This document shows positions 32,262 to 62,425 of a stretch of DNA of 64,000 bases, piece by piece. The DNA is taken from positions 22,080-86,079 of the forward strand of contig CAISGE010000070.1 in NCBI GenBank assembly GCA_903884815.1, in the 5' to 3' direction. The notes beneath the pieces are model-generated. The model did no database searches, was not told the DNA's origin, and was given only the letters and a program-made list of their open reading frames with translations. This DNA comes from Candidatus Omnitrophota bacterium. Its GTDB lineage: Bacteria > Omnitrophota > Omnitrophia > Omnitrophales > Aquincolibacteriaceae. Both the position numbers and the translations under genes were made by a program. Numbering within the stretch: the stretch's first letter is position 1; every line of letters starts with the position of its first letter.

Positions 32262-32262
32262 G

Positions 32263-35058: not shown

Positions 35059-35165
35059 AGGTCAGATTTCCCAATTGACGTCGTTCATAAGATCAATCGC
35101 GAGAGCCGTCCGCACGCTTAAGCCTTTTCGTTCTCTGTGATGTTTCGACAGGATCGTTAGGATTC

Positions 35166-43341: not shown

Positions 43342-44538
43342 TTATCCGCCACCGCTCTGTTTTTTCAGGGCCACCTGGAGCTGTTCCGGGGTGATCGCCC
43401 CTTCCGCGGTGAGGATCTCCCCAAGCTTCTTACGCTCGGGGGAATCCTTGGGAAGGGTGAAAAAGAACGTGGTGCCTTTTCCAAACTCGCTTTCGACCCC
43501 GATCTTCCCGCCATGGCGTTCCACGATCTCTTTACTGATCGAAAGCCCCAACCCAGTCCCTTTTTCAACACCGAGGGCCGGCTTGCCAAACTGCTCAAAT
43601 TTACTGAAGACCTTGCCTAATTCCTCAGGCGCGATCCCGCAGCCCGTATCCTTCACGGCGCACCGGACTTCCGCCGGAGACTCCGAGACAGAGATCTCCA
43701 CAAAACCTTCCTGGCAAAATTTCAGAGAATTGCTCAAGAGGTTCGTGAACACCCGCGTGATCTTGTCTTTATCCGCGCAAACCTGCACGACCTCCGCAGA
43801 CAAAGCGGTCTTAAGTTGCAACCCCTTTTTCCGCGCCACCTCTTCAAAGAGACCCGCGACTTCCCGGACAACATCGTTGATATTAAAAAGGGTTTTCACT
43901 TCCTTGGCTTTTCCCGCTTCCAGTTTCGCGATCGCCAACAGATCGTCCGTGATCCTGAAGAGGCGCGCCACCGAGTTCATGACCATCTCGAGAATATTCT
44001 TTTGATCCTCAGGCCCCTTCGCTGCGACACTGTTATAAACGATCCGAACCAACTCCTGGATCGCGAACAAAGGATTCCTGAGCTCATGGCTGACCACGTT
44101 CACAAAATGATCACGCATGCCCATCAGTTTTTTTCGCTCGTTCGCGTAAGCCAGGGCACGCAAAAGCCCCCGTTCATCCACCTGCCCCTTGATCAGATAA
44201 TCCTGGGCGCCTTTCGAAACGGCCTCGATCGCCACCCCTTCGTCCAGGACATTCCCGGTCCACAAAATGATCGGAAGCCCGGGAGCGTTCTTGGCGAAGG
44301 CCTGATAGATCTCAAGACCAAAGGCATCCGGCACCTTGAGGTCGCTTAAAATAATGTCGAAGGTTTCTTTTTTAAGGAGCTCCAGGGCCTGGGCGAGGGT
44401 TTCGCCGCGGGAGACCACATACTTCAGTGTCTTGGAATGGCGTAGAGAGCGCGTCACCCACTGAGCGTCCACTTCATCATCCTCGAGAAGCAGGAGACGC
44501 AGCGGAGCGTCTTCTTTCTTTTCCGCATCCTCACTCAT
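43342..44538 (-). CDS. Hybrid histidine kinase: REC-HisKA-HATPase_c with a C-terminal T2SSE_N/MshEN-like module
   Basis: REC: LRLLLLEDDEVDAQWV...LSDLKVPDAFGLE. H-box: VSHELRNPLFAIQ. HATPase: [19 protein letters not shown]. The final 25 aa, LGEILTAEGAITPEQLQVALKKQ, resemble the MshEN/GspE N-terminal c-di-GMP-binding motif. Confidence 0.85.
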   Translation of the reverse strand: MSEDAEKKEDAPLRLLLLEDDEVDAQWVTRSLRHSKTLKYVVSRGETLAQALELLKKETFDIILSDLKVPDAFGLEIYQAFAKNAPGLPIILWTGNVLDEGVAIEAVSKGAQDYLIKGQVDERGLLRALAYANERKKLMGMRDHFVNVVSHELRNPLFAIQELVRIVYNSVAAKGPEDQKNILEMVMNSVARLFRITDDLLAIAKLEAGKAKEVKTLFNINDVVREVAGLFEEVARKKGLQLKTALSAEVVQVCADKDKITRVFTNLLSNSLKFCQEGFVEISVSESPAEVRCAVKDTGCGIAPEELGKVFSKFEQFGKPALGVEKGTGLGLSISKEIVERHGGKIGVESEFGKGTTFFFTLPKDSPERKKLGEILTAEGAITPEQLQVALKKQSGGG

Positions 44539-44587
44539 CTCGATGCCACCCTTTCAGGATCTCTTGTTTATCGCAGGTCGAACTCGT

Positions 44588-45001
44588 TTAGGAGGGAAGC
44601 TCGCTCGTCCGCCAATAGGCCGCGATAGTTTCCATGACGGAAAGATACTTGCCCGCGTCCACGGGCTTGATCATATACCCCGCGACCCCCAGCTTGAAAG
44701 CCTTCGCGCGGTCCGACTCCTCCCGGAACGTGCTCAGGATCACCACGGGGATCTTCAGCAGATCGGGATCGTGTTTAAGCTTGTCCAGAAATTCCAGCCC
44801 GTTCATGACCGGCATATCGATGTCGGAAAGGATCACCGCCGGAAGCGCGTTCAGATTGGCACGAAGCCACTCCAGCCCCTTGGCCCCGTTCTCGCAAACG
44901 ATCAGAGGGTTCTTGATGTTCAGTTCCTTCAAGGCGCGCTTGATCGCCGTCACATCGATCTCATCGTCTTCCAGTAAAAGAATAGACCTTCCGTCCTTCA
45001 T
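44588..45001 (-). CDS. Single-domain CheY-like response regulator
   Basis: SILLLEDDEIDVTAIKRALKE...ILSDIDMPVMNGLEFL...KPV. 137 aa. Confidence 0.85.
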   Translation of the reverse strand: MKDGRSILLLEDDEIDVTAIKRALKELNIKNPLIVCENGAKGLEWLRANLNALPAVILSDIDMPVMNGLEFLDKLKHDPDLLKIPVVILSTFREESDRAKAFKLGVAGYMIKPVDAGKYLSVMETIAAYWRTSELPS

Positions 45002-45025
45002 CGCACGCTCCTATGCATCCCGCAG

Positions 45026-46906
45026 TTATTTAGGCCAGGTAAAGAAAAAACGGCTTCCCTCGCCGAGCTTGGATTCTATCCAAACGCGTCCGCCCCGCAA
45101 CTCAATAATTCTCTTCACAAGCGCCAGGCCCACACCGGTGTTTTCAGTCCCCACTTCCGCGCCCAGCGTCTGGAATAATTTGAAGATCTTTTCGAAATTC
45201 TTGGGATCGATCCCCGTCCCGTTATCCTCGACACAGAATTGCCACGCGTCCTTCTGCTCTTCGCAGCGGACCTTGATCTCACCTTGCGGTTTGTCCGAAA
45301 ACTTCATGGCATTCGAGATCAGATTTTGGAAGACCTGATGCATCCTGACCCGAGGACACTTCACGGTCGGCAGCGTTCCGTCGATCGCGATATGGATGCG
45401 CGGAGGCGGGTTCAAGTTCTCAATGATCTCCTTGACCAGAAGATTCATGTCGGCCAGTTCCTCGTCGCCTTCCACATTCCCGACCCGGGAATATTGCAGG
45501 ATCCCGCTGATCAGGGCATCCATCCGGAGAGCACGACTCCTCAAGAGATCGAGTTGATGTTTGCCTTCGTCATCGAACTTGTCGGCGTAATCTTCCTTGA
45601 GCCAGGTCGATACGGAAGTGATCCCGCGAAGAGGCGCCTTGAGATCGTGAGAAACAACATACGCGAAATCCTCGAGTTCCTTGTTCGAACGCTGCAGTTG
45701 CAGGGCCATCGCATTCAACTGATCCCGTGACGCCGTCGTTTTCGCCAAGTGAGCCGTCATCCGGTCGAAGGAGCGCGAAAGATCGCCGATCTCATCACGC
45801 GAACTCATGGCCACGGTGTAGTCCCAATTCCCGTTTCCGATAATTTCGGTCCCCTTCTGTAGTATCTGGATGGGGTTGGAGATCGAACGTGAGATCAGGA
45901 TCGACGCGAAAATGGTCAAGCCCATGGTGATCACCAAAATAGTAATGAGATTTTTCCGCAATAGATTGATCGGGGCAAACACTTCCTCGGCGTCAACCTT
46001 CACGATGATCCCCCATCCAAAGAACGGGACGTAGCGCCAAACCTCCAGGACTTCTTTCCCCCGGTAATCGATAGAGATCCCCTGACCTTTCTTACCCTGA
46101 ACGGCCTGAACCAAGGGGGCCTCCGGATCCGCATCAATATTTACCTTGCGCTTAAAGACCGCGGAGGGATCATGCCGGGTCGGGGCCACAAAGACCACCT
46201 GATTCCCGACCTTGGTGCCGATCACGGTCTCGCCTGTTTCCCCCAACCCGCGGTAGTCGCTTGCCAACGCGTAGATCTCCTTCGTATTCAACCGGACCAT
46301 GGCGATCCCGATCATTTTCCCGGATTTCAGGAACGGGGTCGCCATAAAGACCTCGGGCTCGTTCATCCCGCGGAGAAATTCAAACTCCGAAACCTCGGTC
46401 GCAAGCAGCGTGCTGGCCAGGTCAAAGACTTTGGCGGCGGCAGAATCGTGCAAGGGACCTATTTTGTAATTCACACCGAGATCCTGTTTCCGGTTGAGGG
46501 AAAAAATAACCACCCCGTCCGGCGTGATAAACGAGAGATCCTGAAATCCCGTGATCGCCTGGTAGCGGGAAAAACCGGGCCGGACCTTTCCTTCCACGAC
46601 CGCATAGTCGGGAGACTTCAAGCCGCTTTGCTGAGCTGCCTCTTCCAATATCTCCAGCGCCCGGATGGCGGAGGGCTGCAGGACAAGCAGTTCCAAAGTC
46701 CGCTGTGTCTCGCGGATATAAGTCTCAATGTTACTGACACGCTCAACCGTCATGACCACCAGCTTGTTCATGATCTCATGCTGGAGCTGTTCCTTGCCCC
46801 GGTCATTCGCCAGATAGACGATCACCGCCAAAGGCACCAGAGTGATCAACAAAAACCAGCCGGTGAGCTTGGTCGCGATCTTCGGCTTGAGAAAATCCTT
46901 GAGCAT
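45026..46906 (-). CDS. Sensor histidine kinase with a large periplasmic (Cache-like) domain, HAMP, HisKA and HATPase_c
   Basis: TM1, a periplasmic domain of about 290 aa, TM2, HAMP, H-box VSHDLKAPLRGI, and HATPase N/G boxes (NLISNAMKF, DNGTGID, GVGLALV). Start at the second ATG (46906), with RBS GGAGA 5 nt upstream, overlapping the upstream TGA. Confidence 0.85.
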   Translation of the reverse strand: MLKDFLKPKIATKLTGWFLLITLVPLAVIVYLANDRGKEQLQHEIMNKLVVMTVERVSNIETYIRETQRTLELLVLQPSAIRALEILEEAAQQSGLKSPDYAVVEGKVRPGFSRYQAITGFQDLSFITPDGVVIFSLNRKQDLGVNYKIGPLHDSAAAKVFDLASTLLATEVSEFEFLRGMNEPEVFMATPFLKSGKMIGIAMVRLNTKEIYALASDYRGLGETGETVIGTKVGNQVVFVAPTRHDPSAVFKRKVNIDADPEAPLVQAVQGKKGQGISIDYRGKEVLEVWRYVPFFGWGIIVKVDAEEVFAPINLLRKNLITILVITMGLTIFASILISRSISNPIQILQKGTEIIGNGNWDYTVAMSSRDEIGDLSRSFDRMTAHLAKTTASRDQLNAMALQLQRSNKELEDFAYVVSHDLKAPLRGITSVSTWLKEDYADKFDDEGKHQLDLLRSRALRMDALISGILQYSRVGNVEGDEELADMNLLVKEIIENLNPPPRIHIAIDGTLPTVKCPRVRMHQVFQNLISNAMKFSDKPQGEIKVRCEEQKDAWQFCVEDNGTGIDPKNFEKIFKLFQTLGAEVGTENTGVGLALVKRIIELRGGRVWIESKLGEGSRFFFTWPK

Positions 46907-46908
46907 GC

Positions 46909-48150
46909 TCATCTCCTGGGGTTCGCCCACTTTTGCCCCCAACTCTGATAAAGATCTTCCATAAACTTCTCCCACTCCGCCTTAAGCTTACTCAGCGGGT
47001 AGGGCACGGGACGAACCGGCTTCCCGGAAGTCCAGACGATCGAGAACTGCCCGTCTTCCTTAATGACCCCGATCCTCACCGTTTTCCAGGTATGCTGCGT
47101 CCCGGGATCGACGTACACAATGCCTTCCGGGGCCGAGAAGCTTTGGCCCTGGATGGTTTTGCGCACGGCGTTCACATCTTCTGTCGCCGCATCCTCCACG
47201 GCCTGGGCCCACAAGTACACCCCCACATAGCCCGCTTCGACCGGATCATCGATCACGCGGTTTGCTCCGTATTTCTTCTTAAAGGCCGCCACAAAAACCT
47301 TATTTTCCTCTGAGGCAATACTCTGGAAATAATTCCGGGATCCGTAATTACCGGCGACGGTCTTCGGATCCATCCCTGTGAGTTCCTGTTCTCCGAGACT
47401 GAAGGAAAGCGTGGGGAGCCTGTCCGGTGTCACGCCGGCCCTGCGCAACTCCGTAAAAAAAGCGGCATTCGTATCCCCGGTCAGGGTATTGAGAATGACA
47501 TCCGGCTTTGAGTTGAAGATATTCTGAATCACGCCCGCGACATCCTTGGTGCCGGGCAGAAGATAGTCTTCTCCCACGATCTCCCCGCCCAGCGCGTTCG
47601 CCTGAGCTTTGATGATCTCATGGGCCGCGTGTGAAAAAAGGTAGTCGGAACCGACAAGAAAAAGACGCTTCCACCCCTTGTCAAAACACCACTTCACTGC
47701 GGGAAGGATCTGCTGGTTGGGGGCCGCTCCGGTGTAAATGATGTTCGGGGATTGCTCAAGGCCTTCATATTGGACAGGATAGATCAGAAGATGATTGTAT
47801 TTCTCAAAGAGAGGCTTGAGGGCCTTGCGGCTTTCCGAGGTCCAGCCGCCAAAGACCACGCAGACTTTTTCTTTTGTGATCAGCCGCTCGGCCTCGGCGG
47901 AAAAAGTAGCCCAATCGGATCTTCCATCAGCGATAACGGGTTGGATCCTGCGCCCCAGCAGGCCGCCCCGGGCATTGATCTCCTCGATGGCCATGAGCGT
48001 CGCGTCCTTGACAGAGGTTTCAATGGGCGCCATCGCCCCGCTCATCGAGAAAAGAACCCCCACCTTGATCGGCTCCCCGATCGCGACCTTCCCGCAGCCG
48101 AGGCTCCCCAAAAGCACCGCGAGCACTGCGGCGATGACCTTCAAACGCAT
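46909..48150 (-). CDS. Periplasmic solute-binding protein, LivJ/UrtA/AmiC-type (type I PBP fold), first gene of the phosphorelay operon
   Basis: Lipoprotein-type signal MRLKVIAAVLAVLLGSLGCG with RBS GGGAGG. Type I PBP motifs include KVGVLFSMSG, VVFGGWTSESRKA and a UrtA-like C-terminus (TQHTWKTVRIGVIKEDGQFSIVW). Confidence 0.8.
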   Translation of the reverse strand: MRLKVIAAVLAVLLGSLGCGKVAIGEPIKVGVLFSMSGAMAPIETSVKDATLMAIEEINARGGLLGRRIQPVIADGRSDWATFSAEAERLITKEKVCVVFGGWTSESRKALKPLFEKYNHLLIYPVQYEGLEQSPNIIYTGAAPNQQILPAVKWCFDKGWKRLFLVGSDYLFSHAAHEIIKAQANALGGEIVGEDYLLPGTKDVAGVIQNIFNSKPDVILNTLTGDTNAAFFTELRRAGVTPDRLPTLSFSLGEQELTGMDPKTVAGNYGSRNYFQSIASEENKVFVAAFKKKYGANRVIDDPVEAGYVGVYLWAQAVEDAATEDVNAVRKTIQGQSFSAPEGIVYVDPGTQHTWKTVRIGVIKEDGQFSIVWTSGKPVRPVPYPLSKLKAEWEKFMEDLYQSWGQKWANPRR

Positions 48151-48249
48151 GCTTGAACCTCCCGCTCCGTGGACCTTGCGTGCCAAACGTTTACCTTTAT
48201 AGAACCGGATCATAGGAAATTCAAGCGGTTTTAGAGAAAAATGCCGCAT

Positions 48250-50040
48250 TTATTTCTCCTTTTGAACTGTAAACCCAGAAACCATCCGGCCAGGCACCCT
48301 CAGCCTTAAGTGCGCGTCAAAATAGGGGGTGCAAGGCAGCGGCGAATCCCAACATGCATCCCCGCGCCTTGGAGTGTACACCGCGAACCCGGAGACTGTG
48401 ATTCGTCTATTTAAAGATGCGGCGGGGATCACATGCCATCCCGCGTTCGAAACCTGCAGAATCTTCCTATTGTGAATGAACGCGTTGCTCAAAAGAAGAA
48501 CGCTCCCCATACAAAAAATAGTACCCACTGTCACAATAAACATTCCCCTACGGATATTCCCCTGGGCGGCCACAAAAAATAAAAGGATCGAACTTATTGC
48601 AGCCAGAAAAAAACACGCGGCAGAAAACCTTGGGTCAGGGGCGGTAAAGAACCAATAGACCAGGGATGCCACGGGAGGAAGCAAAATGGCCCATTCCAGA
48701 TCATACGGCCGCCTCGCTTTTGTGAGACGGGCCACACCCGCAGCGATCAGGCAAAAGGAAGCGGTCCACAGAACGGGATAAATCACGTCGATCCTGTGAT
48801 ACTTCGCTATTCTGTGAAGCCAGGGGTTCAGCCATGCCCAACTGCTCAGGACATCCTGCCAGGGGACCCTCGGCATCCGGGCCCAACTATAGACCCAATT
48901 GGCTGTATCTATGATTTTCTCTTTGGGCACGGCCCAATCAACAGCCACCCAACCGATCGTGGATGGAAAAAGCGGCACTCCGGAAAGGATAATACCTCTC
49001 AGGCACCAGACCGGGATCGCGAGAACCGCAGGCATAAGGAAACGAAAAACGCCTTTCAAGGAAGAAGGGTGTGATGTTCTCCACGCGTAGGCAGAAGTAA
49101 AACCGAGGATCACTGAGGAAAAAGCCAGATTGCTCAGTTTTACCGTCACAGCCGTCGCGGCCAAGACGACGAGAACCGTCGCTCGATAGCGCTGAGCTTT
49201 TTGTCCCTGGAGCCATTCGGCGATCCCGTGGGCAAGCAGGATAAACATAGTCAATTGCAGAAGCGCCGAGGCCAGATCCGCCGTCGCTGAAGCGATCCCG
49301 TCTGAGAACAACGCAATAAACACAAGGATCGGCAGCAAGAAAAGATCCGAAATATACCGGAAAGGATGTTCTAGCATGAGCCGTGATGGCTGACGGATGA
49401 CGGACGCGACAGAGGGAAAAAGGGTTGCCAAAACAATCAGGAAAAGGAAGCTATTGGCGAGTGAACATCCGTGTCCAAAGTAGGGATATAAGTTGAGCGC
49501 GGCAACATACGTGAAAAATGAGTGATTGAAAGCCAGTCTCCCATGAAGGTTGCCAAGTCCGGGAACGATCGGGTAAGTGTTGATCCAACGGATCGTATTC
49601 AAGTAATACAGCCCCAGATCCCAGTGCGTCGGGGGCAGCATGGATCTCGAAGCAATCCAAACGGCAACCCCCAGAAACAAGACCACGCCAATCGCGAGCA
49701 AGATCAGCTCCCCCTGGCTAACAAAATAACTCCGCACGCCCGGCCGAGTCTGAAGGATCGCAAAAACAAAGCCCAAGGCAAACACAGGGATGGAAACATA
49801 AGCTGTGAGGGAGAAGAAAAAATGCGCTATCTGAAATAGCAAAAGCGTGAAAGCCCAACCCAGCCAAACGGGAAGTGCGAAGGATTCAGGCTTTTCATTC
49901 GAAACACCTAAGCAGAACGCGGCGACTCGCCCCCAACCGTAATAGGAAACGCCAAGAAGCAGATAGGCAAAAAGCATGCAACAAAGCGCCGAGATATGCG
50001 TCATGTGGGGCATCGTAGGCCACTCATCCTTTAAAATCAA
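48250..50040 (-). CDS. Large polytopic membrane protein (at least 12 TM), hypothetical; possible GT-C-type glycosyltransferase or polymerase
   Basis: Hydropathy only. No conserved catalytic motif identified. It is in an operon with the downstream GT-C gene. Confidence 0.55.
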   Translation of the reverse strand: MILKDEWPTMPHMTHISALCCMLFAYLLLGVSYYGWGRVAAFCLGVSNEKPESFALPVWLGWAFTLLLFQIAHFFFSLTAYVSIPVFALGFVFAILQTRPGVRSYFVSQGELILLAIGVVLFLGVAVWIASRSMLPPTHWDLGLYYLNTIRWINTYPIVPGLGNLHGRLAFNHSFFTYVAALNLYPYFGHGCSLANSFLFLIVLATLFPSVASVIRQPSRLMLEHPFRYISDLFLLPILVFIALFSDGIASATADLASALLQLTMFILLAHGIAEWLQGQKAQRYRATVLVVLAATAVTVKLSNLAFSSVILGFTSAYAWRTSHPSSLKGVFRFLMPAVLAIPVWCLRGIILSGVPLFPSTIGWVAVDWAVPKEKIIDTANWVYSWARMPRVPWQDVLSSWAWLNPWLHRIAKYHRIDVIYPVLWTASFCLIAAGVARLTKARRPYDLEWAILLPPVASLVYWFFTAPDPRFSAACFFLAAISSILLFFVAAQGNIRRGMFIVTVGTIFCMGSVLLLSNAFIHNRKILQVSNAGWHVIPAASLNRRITVSGFAVYTPRRGDACWDSPLPCTPYFDAHLRLRVPGRMVSGFTVQKEK

Positions 50041-50145: not shown

Positions 50146-51834
50146 TCAAGTCGTGGGCACAGCTTTGCCATATTTTTTCACTTTTACTACGGCGCAGATA
50201 GGAACCCCATCCACCGTGACCGTGTGCACCGTCCCAGGCGGCGGCCACCGCCCCTGACGAAAATCTTCGGGAGAAAGATATCTCGAAAGTTTGATCACAT
50301 AATCTGCGTCGTCCTTGGAATGACTCAGAACATACCTTCCGGCGAGCCCGCGCAATAGATAATAGGCCACTTGGGGGGGTTCTCCGTCCGAGGCAATACG
50401 GACCGGTCCGGTCCCTCCTTGTTTCTGACAATCGCTTGCCAGCCACTGCGCCGCTTGCTTCAAACCATTCCCCCAATAATCAGTCTCATAGCGCCCATAA
50501 GCACCCCGTATCCCGCCCACCCAAGGATTAAAATAAACGTATTCATTCGGATGATTCCTCACCATCCACCCCACCGGCTCCACCGCGAACACCATAAGCA
50601 GCAACCCTCCGAGGATCTTCTCCCGCCGGGTCTTGAACCACGCGAAAAGCTCCTGCCATCCCAGCACCGACAGGATCACAAGCGTCGGGTAAATAAAAAG
50701 AAAATGACGCCAGCTATCATAAAGGATCGATCTCCGGAGCATCGCGTAAATAACCGGGAGGACCGTCACCATAAGGATCAGCAGCAAATAACGGCCCGGG
50801 ATCTTTTTCAAAACAGAACCGAAACGGATCGCCGACAGCACTAATCCCGCCTGTACGAACAAAGGAATGGTGATCAGCATCCAAACGGGGATATAAAACC
50901 AGGGAGCTGCGTTCAGCCAGACTGTCTGACCGTTGAAGAGCATGGATCCCTGGACGGCGGCCCGGAAGTAAGAAAGTTCCTCAAGCCCCTTCAACGGGTG
51001 GTGTATCGGATCGATCAATCCGTAAGGCCAAAAGATAAATCCCAGAAAATAACCGGCTCCAAGGACCCACAGGACTTTCAGAAAGGTATTCCGCGGCACA
51101 CGGAATTCCTTCTGCCTCAGGACACCTAGAAGCCACGATACAAAGAGAAAGAAAAACAAGAAGCAGAAGAGAATGAATGCCGCGCTAGCCCGGATATTGA
51201 CCGCTATCGCGATCCCGAGGGCAAGCACGGAAGCGGCTGCGAAGGAGGGTCGGGGCCAAGCTTTTAAAAAGCGTGTCATGCCGTAGATAGAAAAAATATA
51301 CGCGGCGGCAAACGGTATGTCCTTGGGATTATTCATCGAGTGCCCTAGGAAACAAGGCGTGACGATCAGGAACAAAAAGGTCAGAGATGCCGCCCGCCAT
51401 CCGGCCAGTTCCTTGGCCAGAAGTCCCGCGAATAGCATGGCAGACCACCCAAAGCAAGCGTTAAGAAAATGCCGGGATTCATAATAATATGGCAGGTAGA
51501 GCTCGAACGGAGGGTTGGAGAAGATCATTTGGGAAAGGTTATGATGCCAGAGGCCGTAGAGAAGATTCGCCATGGCATCGAAAAGAGCCCCATAGAGATA
51601 TTGGACGCCGAAGAAAACAAAACACTCTTTCGCCGCCCCTCCCGTGGCAAGAAAGCGAAGCACAAGCCTCCCGTAGTGGTCGCTGATCCAGTCATCCCAG
51701 GTGATTCCGAAATCCCGCGAGATGAAAAGCATGAATATAAGCGCCACTCCGGCAAGCGCCCAAAAAAGAGCCTTAGAGAAAGACTCTTGGGAAAGTCCTG
51801 GGGATATATTCGTTCTTTCGATTTGTGCCAGCAT
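50146..51834 (-). CDS. GT-C fold membrane glycosyltransferase (PMT/ArnT-like, GT39/GT83 type)
   Basis: An N-terminal TM bundle with an acidic first periplasmic loop (RDFGITWDDWISDHYG), at least 11 TM, and a C-terminal soluble domain of about 150 aa, the PMT/ArnT-like topology. Confidence 0.7.
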   Translation of the reverse strand: MLAQIERTNISPGLSQESFSKALFWALAGVALIFMLFISRDFGITWDDWISDHYGRLVLRFLATGGAAKECFVFFGVQYLYGALFDAMANLLYGLWHHNLSQMIFSNPPFELYLPYYYESRHFLNACFGWSAMLFAGLLAKELAGWRAASLTFLFLIVTPCFLGHSMNNPKDIPFAAAYIFSIYGMTRFLKAWPRPSFAAASVLALGIAIAVNIRASAAFILFCFLFFFLFVSWLLGVLRQKEFRVPRNTFLKVLWVLGAGYFLGFIFWPYGLIDPIHHPLKGLEELSYFRAAVQGSMLFNGQTVWLNAAPWFYIPVWMLITIPLFVQAGLVLSAIRFGSVLKKIPGRYLLLILMVTVLPVIYAMLRRSILYDSWRHFLFIYPTLVILSVLGWQELFAWFKTRREKILGGLLLMVFAVEPVGWMVRNHPNEYVYFNPWVGGIRGAYGRYETDYWGNGLKQAAQWLASDCQKQGGTGPVRIASDGEPPQVAYYLLRGLAGRYVLSHSKDDADYVIKLSRYLSPEDFRQGRWPPPGTVHTVTVDGVPICAVVKVKKYGKAVPTT

Positions 51835-52068: not shown

Positions 52069-55000
52069 TTAATTCCCTTTGATCTTCCGACTGGCTTCCC
52101 CGGCCGCGGCATCAACCTGCATGATGAATTCATCTTCGCTCAGGCCACCCAATATCTGCTTCACTTGTTGAGGATTCGCACGAATAAGTCTGGCCTTCTC
52201 CAAAAGTGCGGGGTCGATCCTGGCGATCTTGTCGAGATCCGCTACCTTGCCACCTTTCTTTAGGATCTCCAGATTTTTAGCGGCCTCTTGAAGAGCAAGC
52301 GCTTTATCGGCCCTCTCAAGAGCCTTGGACGCTTTTTCAGCCGTAAGTTCATCCGTTTTGGAAAGGGCCTCTTTTTGCTTTTTCATGATACTTTCTGCTT
52401 CTCCAGGCTTAACCTTGGGAGAATCTTCTCCGGCAAGCTCAGTCAGCTCTTTCTCAAGACTTTGTTTCTTCGCCGCTACGGAGTGGGCCTCACGGGGGCT
52501 TGCGCCCGGCATCGATTCGTCAAGCCTCTTGATCTCCTTTTCAAGAAGATCTTTCCGGATAAGAAGGTCCTGGTCCGTCATCGCCTGCCCGGAGGTCTTG
52601 TAAGATTTAATCTCACCTTCCTCCACTTTGAAAAACTTTGTCTTCCCCTGAACAGCCTGCCGTGTCTCTACGAATCCCCTTGCATAAGCATCGCCTGGGC
52701 CAGCCGACAGCCCAGAGCCGTTATAAATCTGGGATCGCACATCGTGAGCACTCAGACCCCTGGCCCTCAGGCTCGTATCCATAAAAGATTCTTGAGCCTC
52801 TGCGAGTTTTTTACAGAGCTCCCTGTCGGCCTTCATGAGATCCCCGCCATGATATTTGTCGGCGTAAACCTTTAAGGTCGATTCTTCGAAATTCGGACGC
52901 ACTGTAAAATCCGCGTCCGTATTGATCGAGGCGACCCTGCCGGTAGCGCTTGAACCGCTGTCTCCCGCCATCACTTCTTTGATCTGCACGCCTTCTTTTC
53001 CCTGGAACTCCTTTATCGTTTTCTTCATGCCCTCATCAAAGGCCTCGTTGACTTCTTTGTTGATCACGCTATTTATCTTTTTCACTTCATTTTTTCCAAG
53101 CTGGCCCAGACCCTCGAGTTGTATCATTTCGCCCCTTCCCGCGCCCGGGAAAAGCTCTTTGATCGCCTTGGCTTGCGTCGCTTCGTCTTTAATGCCCAAG
53201 GCTTTTTGAATTGCCATCTTTTTTCTAACAAGTTCTTTACTCAAGCCTTCTGTCCCAACCTCAGGGGCCATGCCGAGCGCCTTCCGAACCCCTCGGGATG
53301 CCGCGCCGCCCGCCCACGTGAAAAGACCCGAGGCCATCTGTCCGCCGGCCTCCTGTCCGATCATCGTAAGAGCCGTAATAGCAGCAGAGTCCATGATCGA
53401 CCGACCCTTTCGGAGATTATCGACCATGGTATAACCGGCGCCTGCTCCGGTATACGCGACTTCCGACCATCCCAGCGTTGCACCCCCAATAAGCATCCGC
53501 GCGGCCATCGATTTGATCGACATCCCTCCTTCGGCATCTTCACCCGTCACGATCTCACGGGCGGTCATCTGGGCCGTAGCCGTCATGGTCGACCGGGAAT
53601 ACCAGCGCGAATCGCGCGCGGCCTGGTCCATATCCTTTTCAAGCCCGTTCAGCTTGTCACGGAGCTCATCCTCTTTTTTGCGAAGGGCCGCAGTCTGCGC
53701 ACGCCTTGTCTCCGCTTCCCTTATCTCCTGTTTTGTCTTTCGGATATCTTCGGACATTTGTTTGAGTTCAGCCTGGCGTTTCTGGTCCGAGGCCTGATTG
53801 GCGGCCTGGAACTTCTGGTAGTTCGCATCCCTTTCTTTGGCTTCGCTTTCGCTGACCCATCCCCATTGATCCGTATACACTTTCCCTTCCTGGATCATTG
53901 CAAAGTCGGTCTCATAAATCTCGGGCTTCACCCATCCTCCGCCGGCCACGGGCGACCAGACAAGCCCCTGCTCATTCCTGTCTCCGGATTGCGGACCGGT
54001 TGGGACTGGTGCAGCGGCCTGAGGCTGCGAAGGACCGCCTTGTAACGTAATCGGCGGTAATTTTTCGCTATTGTCAGGTTCCGGATTCCAAAAATCTTCC
54101 GCCAAAGTCAGCGGCGGCGGCACATCAGCCTCGGGCTCAGACATTTCATCGGCTAATGTTTTTTGCGCTTCCGAAGAAGCAGCTGATTTAAAAAATACGG
54201 AAGTGTCCATATTTTTCAATTCGTTGAACACCGCCATAATTTGTTCTTCTGCTCCTGGGGTCATCTCAAGGACACTTACCCTATCAACGACATCGGGATT
54301 ATATTCACACCGAAAATAAACATTCTTGAAGCGAATGGCCCACCTCACACCCGATAACTGCCTATGCGGCCAAGTACCGCGGGTCCCAGGGTCAACAAAC
54401 GTGGCAATGGCACCACTGTCCCCGAGTCCGGGATTGTTATTGATGTTGGTTTCAAAATACGTGTCCGTTTTGCGCCAATCATCAATCTGCCAGCCGATCT
54501 CTTTTTCGATTCTTTCTTCGCTTTCTTTTCCTGGGGCTCGAAAAGAAATATCGAAATGGAGCACATAACTATCCTTTTTCCAGCCGGACGCCGCATTAAA
54601 AAGCGGCAAACTGCGGGCCGAATAGCGAAGCTCCATTTCCGGGGAGGCGCCGTCAAAGCCTCTCACTTGAAGGTTGATGTCATCCGCCCTGATGTATCCG
54701 ATATTTTTAACGAGCGGCTTAAGAGAATTTGGTAACCGGTCATAATGGGGGTTATCCGATCGAAAGATCTTTTTCCAATCCTCGGTCTGCATGGCCTTCT
54801 GAAGAGGCTCGTACACTGTTTTATTAGGGTCGAAAGACTGCCCATTGTGAGCTTCTTGGTATAGTTTAGGACTCTCATCGATCCTGATCCGGGCCACGAT
54901 CCCATTATTCCGGATATAACAAAAATGTTCTTTCCCATTGTAATTGGTAGCCGTCCACTGAAACACCTGACTTTCTTCAGCGGGAAGCGGCGCAGACCCT

Positions 55001-57408
55001 ATAAAAACAGGCTTTTTCCAATCGTTCGCTAAATGATGCCCTCCCGTCGCTTCGTCGTAATCGTGTTTATCCATGTGGCCCCATAGGGCTCTCGGACTGT
55101 AAAAATGGACTAATACGCTCGCGTTCCATGTGGTCACTGCAATTGTTTTGGGAGCTATTTCTTGTACGGTATAGTCGATGTCCGCCACTCCATCATAAGT
55201 GTCTTCCGCACCAGTCGACTGGATTTTGGACTTGCCAGGTATAACGAAATTTTTCAGCACATTAGGGACGCGATAACCTTCAAATAAATTTGCATCAACA
55301 ACCGGGTCACGGTTCTCCCATGTTTTTCCGGACATATCAAAAGTGAAATCTTCGACGACTTCTTGCCCGGGCTTTCCGGTAGTTTTTCCGACTTTGAGTG
55401 ACACCGGAAACGACTGAGCCGCATTCCCTGTTTGAATGTCGATCACTTGCAATGCAGCCTGGTAATCGCCGAGCTCCAGCATCGCAAGATCACAGGAAAC
55501 CGTTGCTTTCAATTTTTGGCCCGGGGCAATGGATCCCTTTTCGGAATTAACGGTCACCCATTTTTCGGAAGCCTTCCATTGATATTCCAGGTTCTTGCTT
55601 CCTTGATACAGCATTTCAAATGTTTGGGGTTGGACTACGCGGCCGCGTGTTCCAGCAAACGCCAGCTGTGCCGGCACAAAAATTATTTTTTTTTCTTCCT
55701 TAAGAACTAAAACAGCTTCAACCGTCAGCGTTTGCTTTTCACCGTATTCAATTACAATACGCCCGGGCTGCGGTCCGGCCGGAAGGTCCCCGGGCTTGAA
55801 CGCGACTTCGATCGTCTGCTGCTGTCCGGCATTGACCTGGCCCACGGCAGGAACTTCCATCCATGGAACATCCGAGCTGATCTTGTACGAAACGGTTTCA
55901 TTGCCGGAATTTCTCAGCACAAGAATTTTCGTCGGGACCGTTTCTCCCTTTTTAGCTTCGACTTGAAACTTGGCCATATCCAAAGACAAGGCTCCTCCTG
56001 CAACAATGATCAATTTCACTGGAAGTTTCTGCGGGCTGTTCTCGGCGTTGGGATCCGTGACCTGGATCGTGGCCAGATGTTCGCCAACCGGGAGGCCGGA
56101 AGTATGGACCTTTATATCGATCTGCGCCGAATCACCTTTTTCGAGCTTTCCGGAAACAGTGCCGAGCTCCAGCCACGGAGCGTCTTTGACGCATTGGAAA
56201 TTCAATGTTCCGTCACCGTCGTTTTTGATGACAAAATTGCCGCTTCCTTCGAGAGCTTTTCCGGCTTTGGCCTTGAAATCCAGTTTTTCCGCATCGATCG
56301 CTATCACCGGCGGCACGGTAAGCTTGAACTTGACTGGGATCTTCTTCAAAGTTTTCGCGGCTTCGTCCGTGATCACGATTTCACTGGTCTGCTCGCCGGG
56401 TTGAAGCTGTTTTGTTTCATAGTTGATCGTGAGAACGACCTCCTCTCCCCCCTGCAGCGTCTTCGAGGCGGGCATCACAGAAAACCAGGGATCTTTTGCT
56501 GTAGCTTTAATCGTAACAACGGAAGAACTTGTGTTTACAACGCGGAGGATCTGAGGATTGACCGGTTTTCCCTTTACTCCCTCAGCGGACAATTCCTGGG
56601 CGCTTAGCGAAAGAACATCGTTCGTCATCACAAAAGCCGTTACCTGGATATTTTGCGGACTGTTCTCTGCGCCCGGAGCAGTTACCGTGATCGTAGCAAC
56701 GTGAGCTCCGGCGGACATCGCGGAAGTTTTCATCTTGATTGTTGCGGAAGCGGACTGATTGCCGGAGATCTGCCCATTCGCAGGTTCCGCTGCCATCCAC
56801 GCACTCCCATCGTCCGCCGAGAAAGCCAAGCGAAGCGAATAATTCAACATCCCGGCTCCCAGGTTCTGGATCATGAACGTCTGATCGCTCGCGTTTTCTC
56901 CTTGACGGAATTTTGCACTCAACTGTTTTTGATCCAGCGCGAGCACGGCTCCGGGAAGCATCTCCAGCCGCACAAGCACGGTACGGGGACTGTTCTGGGC
57001 GTTCGCATCTTCGATCACGACCGGCGCCACATAATTCCCCTCTTTAAGATCCGCGGTCTTGAAGCGAAGGTTGATCTTCTGCTCCGATCCGGCCGAGGAA
57101 GTTCCCTGTTCCGGGATCACTTCGAGCCAGGACATCGTTGACTTGACCGTAAAATTGAGCGTGCCCGCTCCGGTATTTCTAACGCTGAAGCTCGCGTCCT
57201 GGGTATTCTCTCCGATAACCCCCCGCACTTTGACTTCTGGAACGCTCGTTTCAATAAAAGACTTGGAAGCGTCTGGAGGCGTACCCGAGGTGGCAGTTTT
57301 CAGCACCTGTACCGCTTTATCCAAAAAACTAGAAAAACCCGGCGGCAGGATCATAAAAAAACATACTATTGCGGCGAAAAAAAACGGGATCGTTTTGGGA
57401 ACTTTCAT
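52069..57408 (-). CDS. Giant secreted protein (1779 aa): signal peptide, at least 5 tandem Ig-like (BACON/ASH-type beta-sandwich) repeats, then a C-terminal region of about 1000 aa of unknown function with coiled-coil and Gly-zipper segments
   Basis: MKVPKTIPFFFAAIVCFFMILPPG signal. Repeated units of about 100 aa share ...NxGAGxLNF..K....WLE.....G.L..G....I.......G.Y.A.V.I...NA.NSP... motifs. The C-terminal part has a charged coiled coil (QKRQAELKQMSEDIRKTKQEIREAETRR) and GxxxG-rich segments. Confidence 0.8.
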   Translation of the reverse strand: MKVPKTIPFFFAAIVCFFMILPPGFSSFLDKAVQVLKTATSGTPPDASKSFIETSVPEVKVRGVIGENTQDASFSVRNTGAGTLNFTVKSTMSWLEVIPEQGTSSAGSEQKINLRFKTADLKEGNYVAPVVIEDANAQNSPRTVLVRLEMLPGAVLALDQKQLSAKFRQGENASDQTFMIQNLGAGMLNYSLRLAFSADDGSAWMAAEPANGQISGNQSASATIKMKTSAMSAGAHVATITVTAPGAENSPQNIQVTAFVMTNDVLSLSAQELSAEGVKGKPVNPQILRVVNTSSSVVTIKATAKDPWFSVMPASKTLQGGEEVVLTINYETKQLQPGEQTSEIVITDEAAKTLKKIPVKFKLTVPPVIAIDAEKLDFKAKAGKALEGSGNFVIKNDGDGTLNFQCVKDAPWLELGTVSGKLEKGDSAQIDIKVHTSGLPVGEHLATIQVTDPNAENSPQKLPVKLIIVAGGALSLDMAKFQVEAKKGETVPTKILVLRNSGNETVSYKISSDVPWMEVPAVGQVNAGQQQTIEVAFKPGDLPAGPQPGRIVIEYGEKQTLTVEAVLVLKEEKKIIFVPAQLAFAGTRGRVVQPQTFEMLYQGSKNLEYQWKASEKWVTVNSEKGSIAPGQKLKATVSCDLAMLELGDYQAALQVIDIQTGNAAQSFPVSLKVGKTTGKPGQEVVEDFTFDMSGKTWENRDPVVDANLFEGYRVPNVLKNFVIPGKSKIQSTGAEDTYDGVADIDYTVQEIAPKTIAVTTWNASVLVHFYSPRALWGHMDKHDYDEATGGHHLANDWKKPVFIGSAPLPAEESQVFQWTATNYNGKEHFCYIRNNGIVARIRIDESPKLYQEAHNGQSFDPNKTVYEPLQKAMQTEDWKKIFRSDNPHYDRLPNSLKPLVKNIGYIRADDINLQVRGFDGASPEMELRYSARSLPLFNAASGWKKDSYVLHFDISFRAPGKESEERIEKEIGWQIDDWRKTDTYFETNINNNPGLGDSGAIATFVDPGTRGTWPHRQLSGVRWAIRFKNVYFRCEYNPDVVDRVSVLEMTPGAEEQIMAVFNELKNMDTSVFFKSAASSEAQKTLADEMSEPEADVPPPLTLAEDFWNPEPDNSEKLPPITLQGGPSQPQAAAPVPTGPQSGDRNEQGLVWSPVAGGGWVKPEIYETDFAMIQEGKVYTDQWGWVSESEAKERDANYQKFQAANQASDQKRQAELKQMSEDIRKTKQEIREAETRRAQTAALRKKEDELRDKLNGLEKDMDQAARDSRWYSRSTMTATAQMTAREIVTGEDAEGGMSIKSMAARMLIGGATLGWSEVAYTGAGAGYTMVDNLRKGRSIMDSAAITALTMIGQEAGGQMASGLFTWAGGAASRGVRKALGMAPEVGTEGLSKELVRKKMAIQKALGIKDEATQAKAIKELFPGAGRGEMIQLEGLGQLGKNEVKKINSVINKEVNEAFDEGMKKTIKEFQGKEGVQIKEVMAGDSGSSATGRVASINTDADFTVRPNFEESTLKVYADKYHGGDLMKADRELCKKLAEAQESFMDTSLRARGLSAHDVRSQIYNGSGLSAGPGDAYARGFVETRQAVQGKTKFFKVEEGEIKSYKTSGQAMTDQDLLIRKDLLEKEIKRLDESMPGASPREAHSVAAKKQSLEKELTELAGEDSPKVKPGEAESIMKKQKEALSKTDELTAEKASKALERADKALALQEAAKNLEILKKGGKVADLDKIARIDPALLEKARLIRANPQQVKQILGGLSEDEFIMQVDAAAGEASRKIKGN

Positions 57409-57411
57409 GAT

Positions 57412-57840
57412 TTAAACTCCGAGAAGTGAGTAATGAAAGGTGTAACCCATGGCAACCGCCAGGGCTTCGATCTTTTGTCGGATGCAAGCATAATCGAATT
57501 GGTAAGCGTAGTTTTTCCCGAAGAGCGCGGACTGCTCTTCGATCGTGCCTTCCCGGGGCTTCCCCCAACCGGTTTTATAGGTTTCCGTCTTAAATCCAAA
57601 ACCGGGCGTGTCGTCAACGTTTCCCATGGATAATCCGGATCCGCTCTCCTTGAGCATCTCCGTAAAGCGAAGTTCTTTTTTGGATTCATCGAAACGGAAC
57701 CGGGCAAGGTAGGTAATTTTCTTGCTGCTCAAAAACGCCTTCCGCTCGGCAAGAAGGCCGTCCAGAATAAAAATATTTTTTTCTTCTTTAAGGGTTAATG
57801 GCAGGTCCGCGATGGCCTTCCGGATCTCTTCTTTCAACAC
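57412..57840 (-). CDS. Small 142-aa protein co-transcribed upstream of the giant protein, hypothetical
   Basis: Its stop lies 4 nt before the start of the giant gene. It has no signal peptide and no recognised motif. Confidence 0.5.
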   Translation of the reverse strand: MLKEEIRKAIADLPLTLKEEKNIFILDGLLAERKAFLSSKKITYLARFRFDESKKELRFTEMLKESGSGLSMGNVDDTPGFGFKTETYKTGWGKPREGTIEEQSALFGKNYAYQFDYACIRQKIEALAVAMGYTFHYSLLGV

Positions 57841-58092
57841 ACCGCCTCCCTTTTCCCCGATAAAAAATCGGATGGAGCGACTATGCTATACCGTGCACCC
57901 ACAGCCATCTCATTGACACAGTGCTAGTTATCGACAACTCCAAATCTGATATTGATGAAATCCAAGAAAAAAAACCTCGCGAAAAAAGAAAGCGATAAAA
58001 ACGCTTACAACGGCTTCGCTGTAAGCCTTTTATCTGCAAAAAGAACAAAATCGGGGCAAAAGGATTGGGACCTTCGACCACGCGCACCCCTT

Positions 58093-58101
58093 CCCCCCCC
58101 C
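58093..58101. repeat. C9 homopolymer (G9 on the minus strand) in the intergenic region upstream of the giant-protein operon
   Basis: ccccttCCCCCCCCCtactc read directly from the sequence; it is about 250 nt upstream of the start of the small partner gene. Confidence 0.9.
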
Positions 58102-58118
58102 TACTCTCAACTGACTCG

Positions 58119-58532
58119 CTACCGCTGAGGAGGATGCAAGAACCGGAATTGCCCCCTGGCAGGCCCCGACGTTGCAATCGCGACCATTTCGCCCTTCTTA
58201 TTGAAACGCACCGTGACCTTACTCTTTTCCTCGCTTGTAGTGGAGGTTGCGGCGAATGTCCCGAACGCCCCCATTTGCCCCGTTGTCGTAGTATCGCCGC
58301 GATCCACTACATCATAAATCCATATTTCGCCGCCATCTTCGACCACTTCTTTGGCTGTCGGTTGCCCCACCTGCATGATCAGTTCGCTTTTTGTCATCCC
58401 CTGAGCAACGCATGCATTGAGATTGGTGTTGAGCGCCACTTGGGATTCTTTGTTCCATGTATCCATGTTGACACACCCAGCGCTAAAGAAAGGCAACATC
58501 AAACATGCCACAATAAAAGCCGATGTTCTCAC
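58119..58532 (-). CDS. BamE/SmpA-OmlA-like outer membrane lipoprotein
   Basis: Lipoprotein signal LMLPFFSAGC, then GMTKSELIMQVGQPTAKEV...GEIWIY resembling the BamE fold motif (G-x-TK-x-x-V-x-x-x-G-x-P). Similarity-based, moderate. Confidence 0.55.
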   Translation of the reverse strand: MRTSAFIVACLMLPFFSAGCVNMDTWNKESQVALNTNLNACVAQGMTKSELIMQVGQPTAKEVVEDGGEIWIYDVVDRGDTTTTGQMGAFGTFAATSTTSEEKSKVTVRFNKKGEMVAIATSGPARGQFRFLHPPQR

Positions 58533-60835: not shown

Positions 60836-62425
60836 CTAATTCGGCCGCATATCCAGAGATTTAACATGGTATTTAAAAATCCTCAGCCCGCTTAAAGTAG
60901 TTTTTGTTAAAAACTCAAAACGGGCATCACTATCCGCCGCTTTTTTGAGGGCATCAAAATTCATTTTCCAATAAACATCTTCGATTAAATAAAAAACCTT
61001 CGTCTTCTGTCTTCGGACAAGGGAGTAAAGACTTCCTTTGCGATATCTGAAAATACGCAAATCAGGAAATTTCTTTTTTGATTTTTTAAACTGTTCCTGA
61101 TGGTAACGAAGGCTGATAGCGGACGCGGTCGTGAGAACGACAACAGGATCCCCTTCCACGGACTGGTCTTTATCAAAATAGTCGACGGCTGAGCGCCAAT
61201 CTTCATTGGGTTTATACACCGACCAAATTTCCTTCGAACCACAACTCAAACTTCCATCCATCGCGGCCGCACCCAAAATCGCCAACAGGGTGTAAGCGGA
61301 AAAACGGAGCCACCGACGCTTAAAGTGAGTCGCTCCTTTGCCTACAGCGATATAAAAGAACGGCAAAAGAATCAAAGCATAACGTTCTATGTAAAGATGA
61401 GGCCATTGAAGCGATAAGAGGATCAGAGTCAGAGGCAGCGCAAAAAGGTAAAGGCACAAATCGATTCTCCTGGTCTCCCTGACTTGAGCAATAAGGCCCT
61501 TCGTGAAAAGATACGCGAAGAAAAACTGCGAAAAAAGCAAATAAGGCTGCCCCAGCAGACTCTTCAGTTGTTCGTGCGAATAAGGGTTGATCGGCCAAAT
61601 GGCGTTGCCCATTGAAAACCAGTTAAAAAAAAGCATCCATCCCTCAAAAGGTGTAAATGCTCTTAAAAAAAAGGCTCCCGACAAAATCGGGACAAGCGTA
61701 ATCTTCGATTTAACGATTAAAAAACAAAGCGGGAAAATAAAAATAGAAGAATTCAAACCCCAAACCAGGAATTTCACGCGCTTGTTCTTTTCGGACAACA
61801 CCAGGCATGAAAACACTACGACAAGAACAATAACGAACCAATGCGTAAAAACCGCGATGAGCAGAGAAAGAAAGTAAACCGCGCACCAACCCCCAATGCG
61901 ACCTTTTTCTTTGATTTTGTAAAATGAGTAAACACTCATCAAGGCGAGCAATAAAAGCATCGAGTAAGGCACGGCTTCACGAGAGTACCAAACATGAACA
62001 GGCGAGAGGGCTAACAAAAATGAAGCGATCATCGCGCTCAGTCGATCTGTCAATTTTAATGCGACAAGGTAAATCAACACGATCGATAAAATGCCGCAAA
62101 GAAAAGGAAGCATTCTCACGGAAAGTTCGGAGTCGCCAAACAGTCGGACCCAAAAAGACATCAGGAGTGGATAAAAAGGTGCCGCGGGGTCCTCCCAAAT
62201 CCGATTCCACATCCCCCCGAACAAGGTTCGAAACCCCACAAGCGTTGAATACCCCACTTCGTCATACCAAAAGCTTCGTGTTAACCCCTGCATCCGAAGA
62301 ACCACTCCGAGCAGAATAATTCCGACTAAAAGAAACTTTGAATGTTTACTCAAAATGGAGTTATCGTCTGTCATTGTTCCATTCCGCGATTGCACAAAGC
62401 CCCAACTTCTTTCTTGAAGATTCAT
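60836..62425 (-). CDS. GT-C fold membrane glycosyltransferase of the PMT/ArnT (GT39/GT83) family
   Basis: First periplasmic loop RSFWYDEVGYS carries a PMT/ArnT-like Asp-Glu (DE) motif. Multiple TM segments follow, then a C-terminal soluble domain. The real start may be the internal MTDDNS (62374). Confidence 0.75.
   Translation of the reverse strand: MNLQERSWGFVQSRNGTMTDDNSILSKHSKFLLVGIILLGVVLRMQGLTRSFWYDEVGYSTLVGFRTLFGGMWNRIWEDPAAPFYPLLMSFWVRLFGDSELSVRMLPFLCGILSIVLIYLVALKLTDRLSAMIASFLLALSPVHVWYSREAVPYSMLLLLALMSVYSFYKIKEKGRIGGWCAVYFLSLLIAVFTHWFVIVLVVVFSCLVLSEKNKRVKFLVWGLNSSIFIFPLCFLIVKSKITLVPILSGAFFLRAFTPFEGWMLFFNWFSMGNAIWPINPYSHEQLKSLLGQPYLLFSQFFFAYLFTKGLIAQVRETRRIDLCLYLFALPLTLILLSLQWPHLYIERYALILLPFFYIAVGKGATHFKRRWLRFSAYTLLAILGAAAMDGSLSCGSKEIWSVYKPNEDWRSAVDYFDKDQSVEGDPVVVLTTASAISLRYHQEQFKKSKKKFPDLRIFRYRKGSLYSLVRRQKTKVFYLIEDVYWKMNFDALKKAADSDARFEFLTKTTLSGLRIFKYHVKSLDMRPN

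Follow-up and report, generated by a model that had tools for sequence, protein, structure and literature searches.

A giant protein of Candidatus Omnitrophota joins a signal-like N-terminus and an Ig-like array to a conserved module with a candidate nucleotidyltransferase domain

Results

A stretch of DNA of 64,000 nucleotides (nt) from contig CAISGE010000070.1 of a Candidatus Omnitrophota bacterium (hereafter the window, meaning the whole stretch) carries on its minus strand a small gene encoding 142 amino acids (aa; 57412..57840) and, directly downstream of it, a large gene encoding 1779 aa (52069..57408). These two genes and their predicted products are the subject of this work. The large protein is built of a signal-like N-terminus, an array of immunoglobulin-like (Ig) domains, a fast-diverging middle domain and a conserved C-terminal module, in which one alpha/beta domain is a candidate for the pol-beta-type nucleotidyltransferase (NTase) fold. 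All coordinates given below for segments of the large protein refer to the minus strand.

The small gene starts with GTG preceded by GGGAGG and the large gene with ATG, with GGAG located 8 nt 5′ of it within the last codons of the small gene. A previous interpretation based on the DNA letters only (the sequence-only reading) had placed the small gene upstream on the same strand, as found here, at a distance of 4 nt; the measured gap is 3 nt. A terminator-like hairpin (58003..58026, minus strand; 10-bp stem with 5 GC pairs, T-tract) is situated between the small gene and the lipoprotein gene lying upstream. Since it cuts off the lipoprotein gene, it looks like the upstream boundary of a two-gene unit, and the pair resembles a separate transcription unit. 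The large gene is genuine, as full-length homologues with 43-45% identity are encoded in metagenome-assembled genomes (MAGs) of Omnitrophota.

The hydropathy of the large protein agrees with the signal peptide postulated for it. The segment of aa 1-26 (57331..57408) is signal-like, with K2 and K5 ahead of a hydrophobic core, and the 19-aa Kyte-Doolittle (KD) windows starting at aa 1-15 reach a maximum of 2.16; a signal-like N-terminus is also present in the orthologues and in the paralogue P0127. It is followed by six Ig-like domains of the BACON_2/HYDIN-VesB type (aa ~60-680; 55369..57231), recognized by Pfam models and by motifs. Both memberships exceed the Pfam gathering scores: BACON_2 with 136.2 bits against a cut-off of 25 (E 3.7e-40, 5 stretches) and HYDIN_VesB_CFA65-like_Ig with 82.5 bits against 25.5 (E 2.7e-23). 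The HYDIN/VesB, Cep192 (Cep192_D6), MSP and CFAP65 Ig models jointly span aa ~60-675, corresponding to six domains, and a choice-of-anchor D model matched below its cut-off. The motif pair N.G.G.LN[FY] and [NG]A.NSP is strict in three domains (aa 78/136, 182/246 and 396/454), degenerate in two (aa 291 and 499) and missing in the sixth, hence the earlier description of at least five repeats with a shared pattern was correct as to the repeats and slightly generous as to the pattern. The array is 56-59% identical to that of the orthologues and 39% identical to the truncated P0002. Surface proteins of the BACON/HYDIN-VesB/choice-of-anchor-D kind, which aa 60-680 clearly match behind the signal-like peptide, generally carry a glycoside hydrolase, protease or sorting domain at their end, whereas in the window protein the array is continued by a variable domain and then by an NTase-like module.

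The region C-terminal to the Ig array begins with the middle domain (aa 690-1090; 54139..55341), which has no family match and is only 22-24% identical to the orthologues, versus 56-69% in its flanks. An acidic, Pro-rich linker (aa 1091-1140; 53989..54138) comes next, at the position that is occupied by a transmembrane (TM) helix in other family members; the TM helix of P0006 aligns as an insertion within this linker. Further on there is a W-rich mini-domain (aa ~1141-1190; GLVWSPVAGGGWVKPEIYE...GKVYTDQWGW) and a charged coiled coil (aa ~1191-1279; 43% K/R/D/E), which together occupy 53572..53988, contain invariant G/W/P/Y columns and are common to ~15-47 representatives. They are succeeded by a family-conserved Gly-rich helical segment (aa 1280-1389; 53242..53571) with 18% Gly, too little hydrophobicity for a TM helix and conserved charged residues in the family alignment, by the conserved alpha/beta domain (aa 1390-1625; 52534..53241) and by a helical charged C-terminal tail (aa 1626-1779; 52072..52533) with family-invariant K, R and P positions (K1253, R1257 and P1304 in P0127 numbering). 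The five elements from the W-rich mini-domain to the helical tail make up one conserved module of ~640 aa. The charged coiled coil and the Gly-zipper stretches of the sequence-only reading are both present and conserved in the family. The His/Asp-rich segment that it pointed out is also there (aa 768-794), within the variable middle domain, but it is not conserved in the orthologues, on which ground a metal site in it was ruled out. A strict regular expression for the W motif was too narrow to be informative.

Neither the whole of aa 687-1779 nor any of four sub-segments matched Pfam, NCBIfam, PHROG, PADLOC or PDB sequences (the last compared by phmmer/hmmsearch) at E<=1, apart from coiled-coil noise. 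PADLOC gave no match, and PHROGs gave two matches only, both to families of unknown function and neither in the small protein nor in the conserved core of the module. The absence of a recognised family from the C-terminal half, as asserted before, is therefore confirmed; all named members found in the databases are "hypothetical" except for one "PEGA domain-containing protein", named after its N-terminus.

A word-indexed homologue search covering 5.8 billion proteins returned five relatives of the C-terminal half, four of which are full-length-type orthologues at 43-45% identity; the same search with a core profile returned fragments only. A genome scan with a 9-member alignment mapped the orthologues to Candidatus Omnitrophota MAGs, one genome having two paralogues, and the protein P0128 is named Omnitrophica. 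In an exhaustive HMMER search of 1.84 billion representatives 133 proteins were found at E<=1e-3, 24 of them at E<=1e-30. The part shared across the family corresponds to aa ~1280-1625, often together with the tail; the W-rich mini-domain and the coiled coil occur in a subset, and the middle domain and the Ig array are limited to the Omnitrophota clade. Named members come from Dehalococcoidales, Anaerolineae/Anaerolineales, Ca. Syntrophonatronum, Clostridiales/Eubacteriales and Actinomycetota. Among 42 full-length members Pfam domains were present only in the two Omnitrophota paralogues and in the PEGA protein, plus one weak Shr-like_HID match (E 3.8e-4). The module defines a widespread unannotated family of candidate enzymes.

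Identity to the orthologues amounts to 64-69% in the W-rich mini-domain with the coiled coil, 56-60% in the core (aa 1281-1625) and 63-67% in the tail. Between the relatives themselves the core is 90-97% identical, and the middle domain falls to 52-56% across sub-lineages. By these comparisons the variable element is the middle domain and not the C-terminus, and the pattern expected of a polymorphic toxin is therefore reversed.

The alpha/beta domain contains the signature G1482-D-S-G-S-S...T1497-D1498-A-D1500 (52909..52965), that is G-S, 11 residues and D-x-D; in full the window protein reads V-M-A-G1482-D-S-G1485-S1486-S, (11 residues), D1498-A-D1500-F. The family form, V-G-D-S-G-S-S followed after 7-14 residues by T-D-x-D, was seen in the majority of the 70 family proteins that were scanned first. 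The S-G-S and D..D columns are invariant in the 24- and 42-member alignments, a further Asp, D1573 (ADSYP/GDAY motif), is near-invariant, and the SYKTSGQA motif is strongly conserved, though not invariant. Pol-beta nucleotidyltransferases have the signature hG[GS]-x(9-13)-Dh[DE]h at strand 1 / strand 2, and aa 1482-1500 fit it because the GS-x11-DxD spacing falls within these limits. The same G-S-x11-D-x-D after a beta-strand, together with a further conserved Asp, is shared with MNT of the HEPN-MNT pairs (HI0073, 1wot, 2rff type) and with the pol-beta superfamily, and two-domain NTases such as ANT(3'')(9) have a helical region after the catalytic domain, as does the module of the window protein.

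An AlphaFold2 model of aa 1280-1625, built from the 24-member alignment, has a predicted local distance difference test score (pLDDT) above 90 for aa ~1390-1625 and of 41-70 for the Gly-rich helices. Foldseek against PDB gave nothing significant (best E 0.12); FAM46/TENT5 NTases were recurrent, at a probability of <=0.28. No NTase family was matched in Pfam or NCBIfam by the protein or its segments, nor in Pfam by 24 family members at E<=5, and a PDB profile search found no NTase. In hhalign the family alignment A2 scored a probability of 0.05% against an ANT(3'')(9) sequence that had been validated against 7uy4 (E 2e-167). Likeness to a known NTase family at the sequence or profile level was therefore not found. 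In view of the non-significant Foldseek result and of Pfam and hhalign without an NTase signal, the pol-beta-type fold is kept as a moderately supported lead and not as a membership, and we consider it the probable fold of the domain. In contrast to MNT and other pol-beta NTases, the candidate domain lacks profile similarity and a significant Foldseek match, is set in a ~640-aa module with a W-rich domain, a coiled coil and Gly-rich helices, has no HEPN partner, and is fused to TM/ectodomain regions or, in the window, to an Ig array that would be exported. A SGNH/GDSL hydrolase or a serine protease suggested by GDSGSS was ruled out, as there is no invariant His, the model is not a trypsin-like barrel and no SGNH fold was matched. 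A literature search combining glycine zipper, nucleotidyltransferase and toxin yielded nothing relevant.

In a simple hydropathy scan the module is preceded by TM-like segments in most members of the family. Outside Omnitrophota this is often an N-terminal segment plus one TM helix 150-300 aa before the core, or 4-8 segments. In many members a "G-x-[IV]-P-[GL]-P-E" element is followed by the TM helix, a cluster of R/K and then the module. This juxtamembrane element (carriers include P0157, P0158, P0163, P0169, P0170, P0179, P0185, P0186, P0198, P0204, P0220 and P0227) resembles the PEP-CTERM-type tripartite sorting signal, yet it is located mid-protein. When K/R are counted around the TM helix, 35 members have more of them on the side of the module and 22 have more on the opposite side. 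Beyond the N-terminus of the window protein, KD stays below 1.2 in every 19-aa window apart from one that lies in an Ig domain, and all Omnitrophota members, including the paralogues P0127 and P0128, are devoid of a TM-like segment beyond the N-terminus. The catalytic-type residues and the core are still highly conserved in this TM-less clade. With hydropathy taken at face value, we lean slightly towards export of the whole protein in Omnitrophota.

At all four non-Omnitrophota loci the gene directly downstream of the module gene encodes a homologous domain of ~320 aa without a Pfam model (9601-10812 in L015, Dehalococcoidales; 12680-13777 in L016; 11556-12707 in L017; 9478-10662 in L018, Ca. 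Syntrophonatronum). These partners resemble each other at 1e-27 to 1e-52 in blastp and with 99.95% probability (E 4e-38) in hhalign. C-terminal to the domain there are double zinc ribbons at two loci, GYF_2 at one and nothing at one. A hidden Markov model (HMM) of the four partners, run against six-frame translations of the window and of the Omnitrophota loci, found no counterpart, and homology of the 142-aa protein to the partner was ruled out (hhalign probability 0.08%). The canonical system accordingly consists of an ectodomain-TM-module protein and the ~320-aa partner, and the Omnitrophota form of a signal-Ig array-variable domain-module protein, usually with the 142-aa protein. Relative to the former, the Omnitrophota clade has lost the TM helix and the ~320-aa partner and gained the Ig array and the variable domain.

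The 142-aa protein (pI 8.6) has no signal peptide, in line with the cytoplasmic appearance noted earlier. It belongs to a family without a Pfam or NCBIfam model, which comprises at least 598 clusters of ~143 aa with 55-62% identity across Dehalococcoidia, Bipolaricaulota, Verrucomicrobia and Desulfobacterota. Some sources name its members "ribonucleoside-triphosphate reductase" or "cobyric acid synthase", names that look spurious. The 142-aa protein of the window is nearer to homologues from Dehalococcoidia/Verrucomicrobia (~60%) than to the Omnitrophota copies beside P0003 and P0005 (48%). In its model (pLDDT 71, disordered stretch at residues 68-95) the closest folds are the sigma-S-binding factor Crl and KA1-type alpha+beta domains, but identity is 8%, the Pfam Crl family was not matched and the protein does not qualify as a Crl.

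The small gene is adjacent to the large one at five of eight Omnitrophota loci, with gaps of 3-87 nt: besides the window it lies directly upstream in the P0003 and P0005 lineages (11 nt each), directly upstream of the paralogue P0127 (19 nt) and upstream of the closest relative P0008 (87 nt on one contig and 3 nt on another), where a small protein 88% identical to that of the window is followed by a 1775-aa BACON protein. In three genomes (Verrucomicrobia, Dehalococcoidales and another lineage) it is solitary, with unrelated neighbours and no module gene; further copies of the family are at 6001-6438 of L007, 6001-6432 of L008 and 917-1348 of L009. The small gene is a conserved neighbour, as the sequence-only reading had supposed, but the pairing is not exclusive, with three Omnitrophota loci lacking it and solitary copies elsewhere. 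Co-occurrence is not restricted to large-gene loci, and the idea of a dedicated chaperone was not sustained for a family of this size that is solitary in other phyla and absent beside three Omnitrophota family genes.

The surroundings of the pair were characterized as well. Upstream there is a lipoprotein gene (58119-58532, minus strand; lipobox FSAGC) with a BamE match of E 0.0034 (17 bits against a cut-off of 93); the product matches PHROG 3135 (function unknown) better than BamE, at E 1.5e-9. A signal-bearing protein of 275 aa, likewise upstream, has a weak autotransporter beta-domain match (E 0.004, 17 bits against 26). The BamE-like lipoprotein and the beta-barrel outer membrane protein (OMP) reported for this position thus exist as genes, with weak family matches below the cut-offs. 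Flanking GT-C glycosyltransferases were also correctly recognized, as PMT_2-type proteins are encoded on both sides (60836-62425, E 5e-15; 50146-51834, E 9e-5; both minus strand); further downstream is a LIC_10190-family membrane protein (48250-50040, minus strand, E 5e-62). By tblastn and blastp, none of the BamE-like, OMP and GT-C genes has a counterpart at any related locus, except for one PMT_2 gene ~3 kb downstream of the orthologue on the closest relative's contig. A link of the PMT_2-type genes to glycosylation of the exported protein is possible.

Genes downstream of the large gene vary, with GT-C in the window and an ECF (extracytoplasmic function) sigma factor, a 145-aa TM protein with GH162 or a 134-aa open reading frame (ORF) in the relatives. 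Upstream of the pair the Omnitrophota relatives carry genes for a 104-aa zinc-ribbon protein with TM segments and a 90-aa signal-bearing protein (8795-9109 and 9208-9480 in L001; 9212-9526 and 9624-9896 in L004; 1422-1691 in L005; 5683-5994 and 6097-6366 in L010), and downstream an ECF sigma factor, a zf-HC2 anti-sigma factor, an LTXXQ protein and hrcA-grpE-dnaJ. Neither these two upstream genes nor the shared downstream genes are found around the window copy. Very large genes lie near the relatives' loci; they include genes for RHS-repeat/ILEI proteins that are ~4360 aa long, along with ORFs of 2063 and 1537 aa (L002 23817-end; L003 23850-end; L005 16793-end; L013 9-6200; L014 29-4642).

An ORF of 98 aa (57881-58177) was judged spurious, being of low complexity and implausible sequence, spanning the hairpin and overlapping the lipoprotein gene. 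ORFs of 95-308 aa on the plus strand within the large gene (52288-57415) have antisense "homologues" opposite the orthologues; they are shadows of the conserved coding strand and not genes. The remainder of the window is ordinary chromosomal DNA encoding an ABC-2 transporter with an HlyD-type adaptor, release factor RF3 (prfC), two histidine kinases and a periplasmic binding protein; two minus-strand stretches of such ordinary content extend over 31137-36206 and 43342-48249. No tRNA genes were found in the window.

Discussion

The locus is neither a new export machine nor a classical toxin. As a tentative mechanism, which we regard as possible though doubtful, we propose an exported protein that binds a target and transfers nucleotides in the contacted cell, with the small protein acting in the cytoplasm of the producer. 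Given a Sec-type N-terminus and no later TM helix, the entire protein would leave the cytoplasm. The Ig array and the variable domain would attach to a polymer or to the surface of another cell, and the conserved module would carry out a reaction of the nucleotidyl-transfer type where nucleoside triphosphates (NTPs) exist, i.e. inside a host or prey cell with which contact has been made. The small protein, its translation being coupled to that of the large one, might serve as a holder or inhibitor in the producer cytoplasm before export. A predatory or parasitic lifestyle has been proposed for Omnitrophota (PMC10066038), and for that reason an effector acting in host or prey fits the lifestyle of the group.

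Several points weigh against this proposal. It is awkward to place an NTP-dependent enzyme outside the cytoplasm, and its delivery to another cell is purely conjectural. A cytoplasmic, translationally coupled partner suits a cytoplasmic module better than an exported one; moreover the small protein exceeds in conservation and in spread what would be expected of a typical immunity or chaperone protein, and its gene is missing at three of the eight Omnitrophota loci (P0004, at L004/L011, in the genome shared with P0127; L010; and P0128, at L014). As the K/R count is mostly higher on the module side of the TM helix, the data suggest a cytoplasmic module in members outside Omnitrophota. The main uncertainty is the topology itself, derived with so crude a method as a simple hydropathy scan.

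Two alternatives retain the module and differ as to where it resides and what it does. In one, the module is cytoplasmic, the Ig array and the variable domain constitute an extracytoplasmic sensor, the membrane is crossed by an unrecognised element such as the Gly-rich helices, and the 142-aa protein replaces the ~320-aa cytoplasmic partner as substrate or regulator of the module. Single-pass receptor enzymes are organized as ectodomain, TM helix, coiled coil and cytoplasmic catalytic domain, and the canonical non-Omnitrophota members, having a variable ectodomain, a TM helix, a coiled coil and a conserved enzyme-like domain, are likewise comparable to receptor-type nucleotide-processing enzymes, e.g. 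receptor-type nucleotidyl cyclases; they differ from the latter in the candidate fold, which is pol-beta-like and not that of a class III cyclase, and the window protein differs also in lacking the TM helix. The TM helix ahead of the module in the canonical family and its cytoplasmic-looking partner with zinc ribbons or GYF, the translational coupling of a small protein without a signal peptide, the retention of catalytic-type residues and the availability of NTPs only in the cytoplasm all speak for a receptor of this kind. We nevertheless hold it to be unlikely, because hydropathy detects no TM helix in the window protein or in any Omnitrophota orthologue or paralogue, the Gly-rich helices contain conserved charged residues and the family TM position is taken by the acidic Pro-rich linker. 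The other alternative, rather unlikely in our view, is a structural surface or envelope protein, exported as a whole, in which the module would be a non-catalytic device for oligomerisation or anchoring, the Ig array a stalk or adhesin, and GS...DxD a metal- or ligand-binding motif. Ig arrays of the BACON/choice-of-anchor-D type are typical of surface proteins, the long coiled coil and the Gly-rich helices would suit such a role, and neither a sequence-level NTase signal nor a significant Foldseek match was obtained. Against a structural role stand the S-G-S, D-x-D, D, K and R residues, invariant across four or five phyla in a manner resembling an active site, the position of the alpha/beta domain among the most conserved regions, and the apparently cytoplasmic module of other lineages.

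The two explanations put forward by the sequence-only reading fared worse. A polymorphic-toxin-like cargo with a cognate chaperone or immunity protein shares with the Rhs, CdiA and MafB systems a large exported protein, N-terminal repeats, an enzyme-like C-terminal domain and a small adjacent gene, and RHS-repeat giants do occur near the relatives' loci. Neither a hypervariable C-terminal domain nor a downstream co-varying immunity gene was found, however: in contrast to those systems the C-terminus is conserved (56-69% versus 22-24% in the middle), the module recurs in 133 representatives, the small gene lies upstream and belongs to a pan-phylum family that is solitary elsewhere and not lineage-specific, no conserved gene occupies the downstream immunity position, and PADLOC and PHROG gave no family-level match. 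We consider such a toxin very unlikely. A dedicated export or assembly module of the BamE-like lipoprotein, the OMP and the GT-C proteins is to be judged extremely unlikely; although these genes share the strand of the pair, lying no more than 3 kb upstream of it or immediately downstream, and a PMT_2 gene accompanies the closest relative, they are not conserved at the other homologous loci, a terminator-like hairpin sets the lipoprotein gene apart from the small and large genes, and the BamE and autotransporter matches are far below the cut-offs, so that neither conserved OMP/lipoprotein linkage nor family-level matches were observed.

Returning to the exported effector, a more far-reaching version, which we consider distinctly unlikely as a whole, would have Omnitrophota repurpose a cytoplasmic, membrane-tethered NTase-like signalling module, which would act together with the ~320-aa partner in Chloroflexota, Firmicutes and Actinomycetota. 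By deletion of the TM helix and fusion to a signal peptide, an Ig array and a recognition domain that diversifies rapidly it would have become a secreted, target-guided effector nucleotidylating a component of host or prey, with the pan-phylum 142-aa protein as a cytoplasmic inhibitor or as a mimic of the conserved target.

Conclusions

The locus encodes a probable pol-beta-type NTase, of predicted activity, in an unprecedented setting behind an Ig array that would be exported. The literature on giant genes of Omnitrophota makes no mention of BACON, Ig-like domains or nucleotidyltransferases, and the module, the ~320-aa partner and the 142-aa protein are three unannotated families that are not mentioned in the literature searched. 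Omnitrophota are proposed to be largely predators or parasites (PMC10066038), and their host-interaction proteins are little known. If the NTase interpretation is true, an unannotated enzyme family would be present in at least four phyla, whose members are mostly uncultured anaerobes, in a receptor-like two-gene form and, in Omnitrophota, in an exported form. Experimental handles are offered by the conserved module, by the fast-evolving middle domain and by the exchange of both the TM helix and the partner gene. Even without the enzyme idea, models could be provided for all three families.

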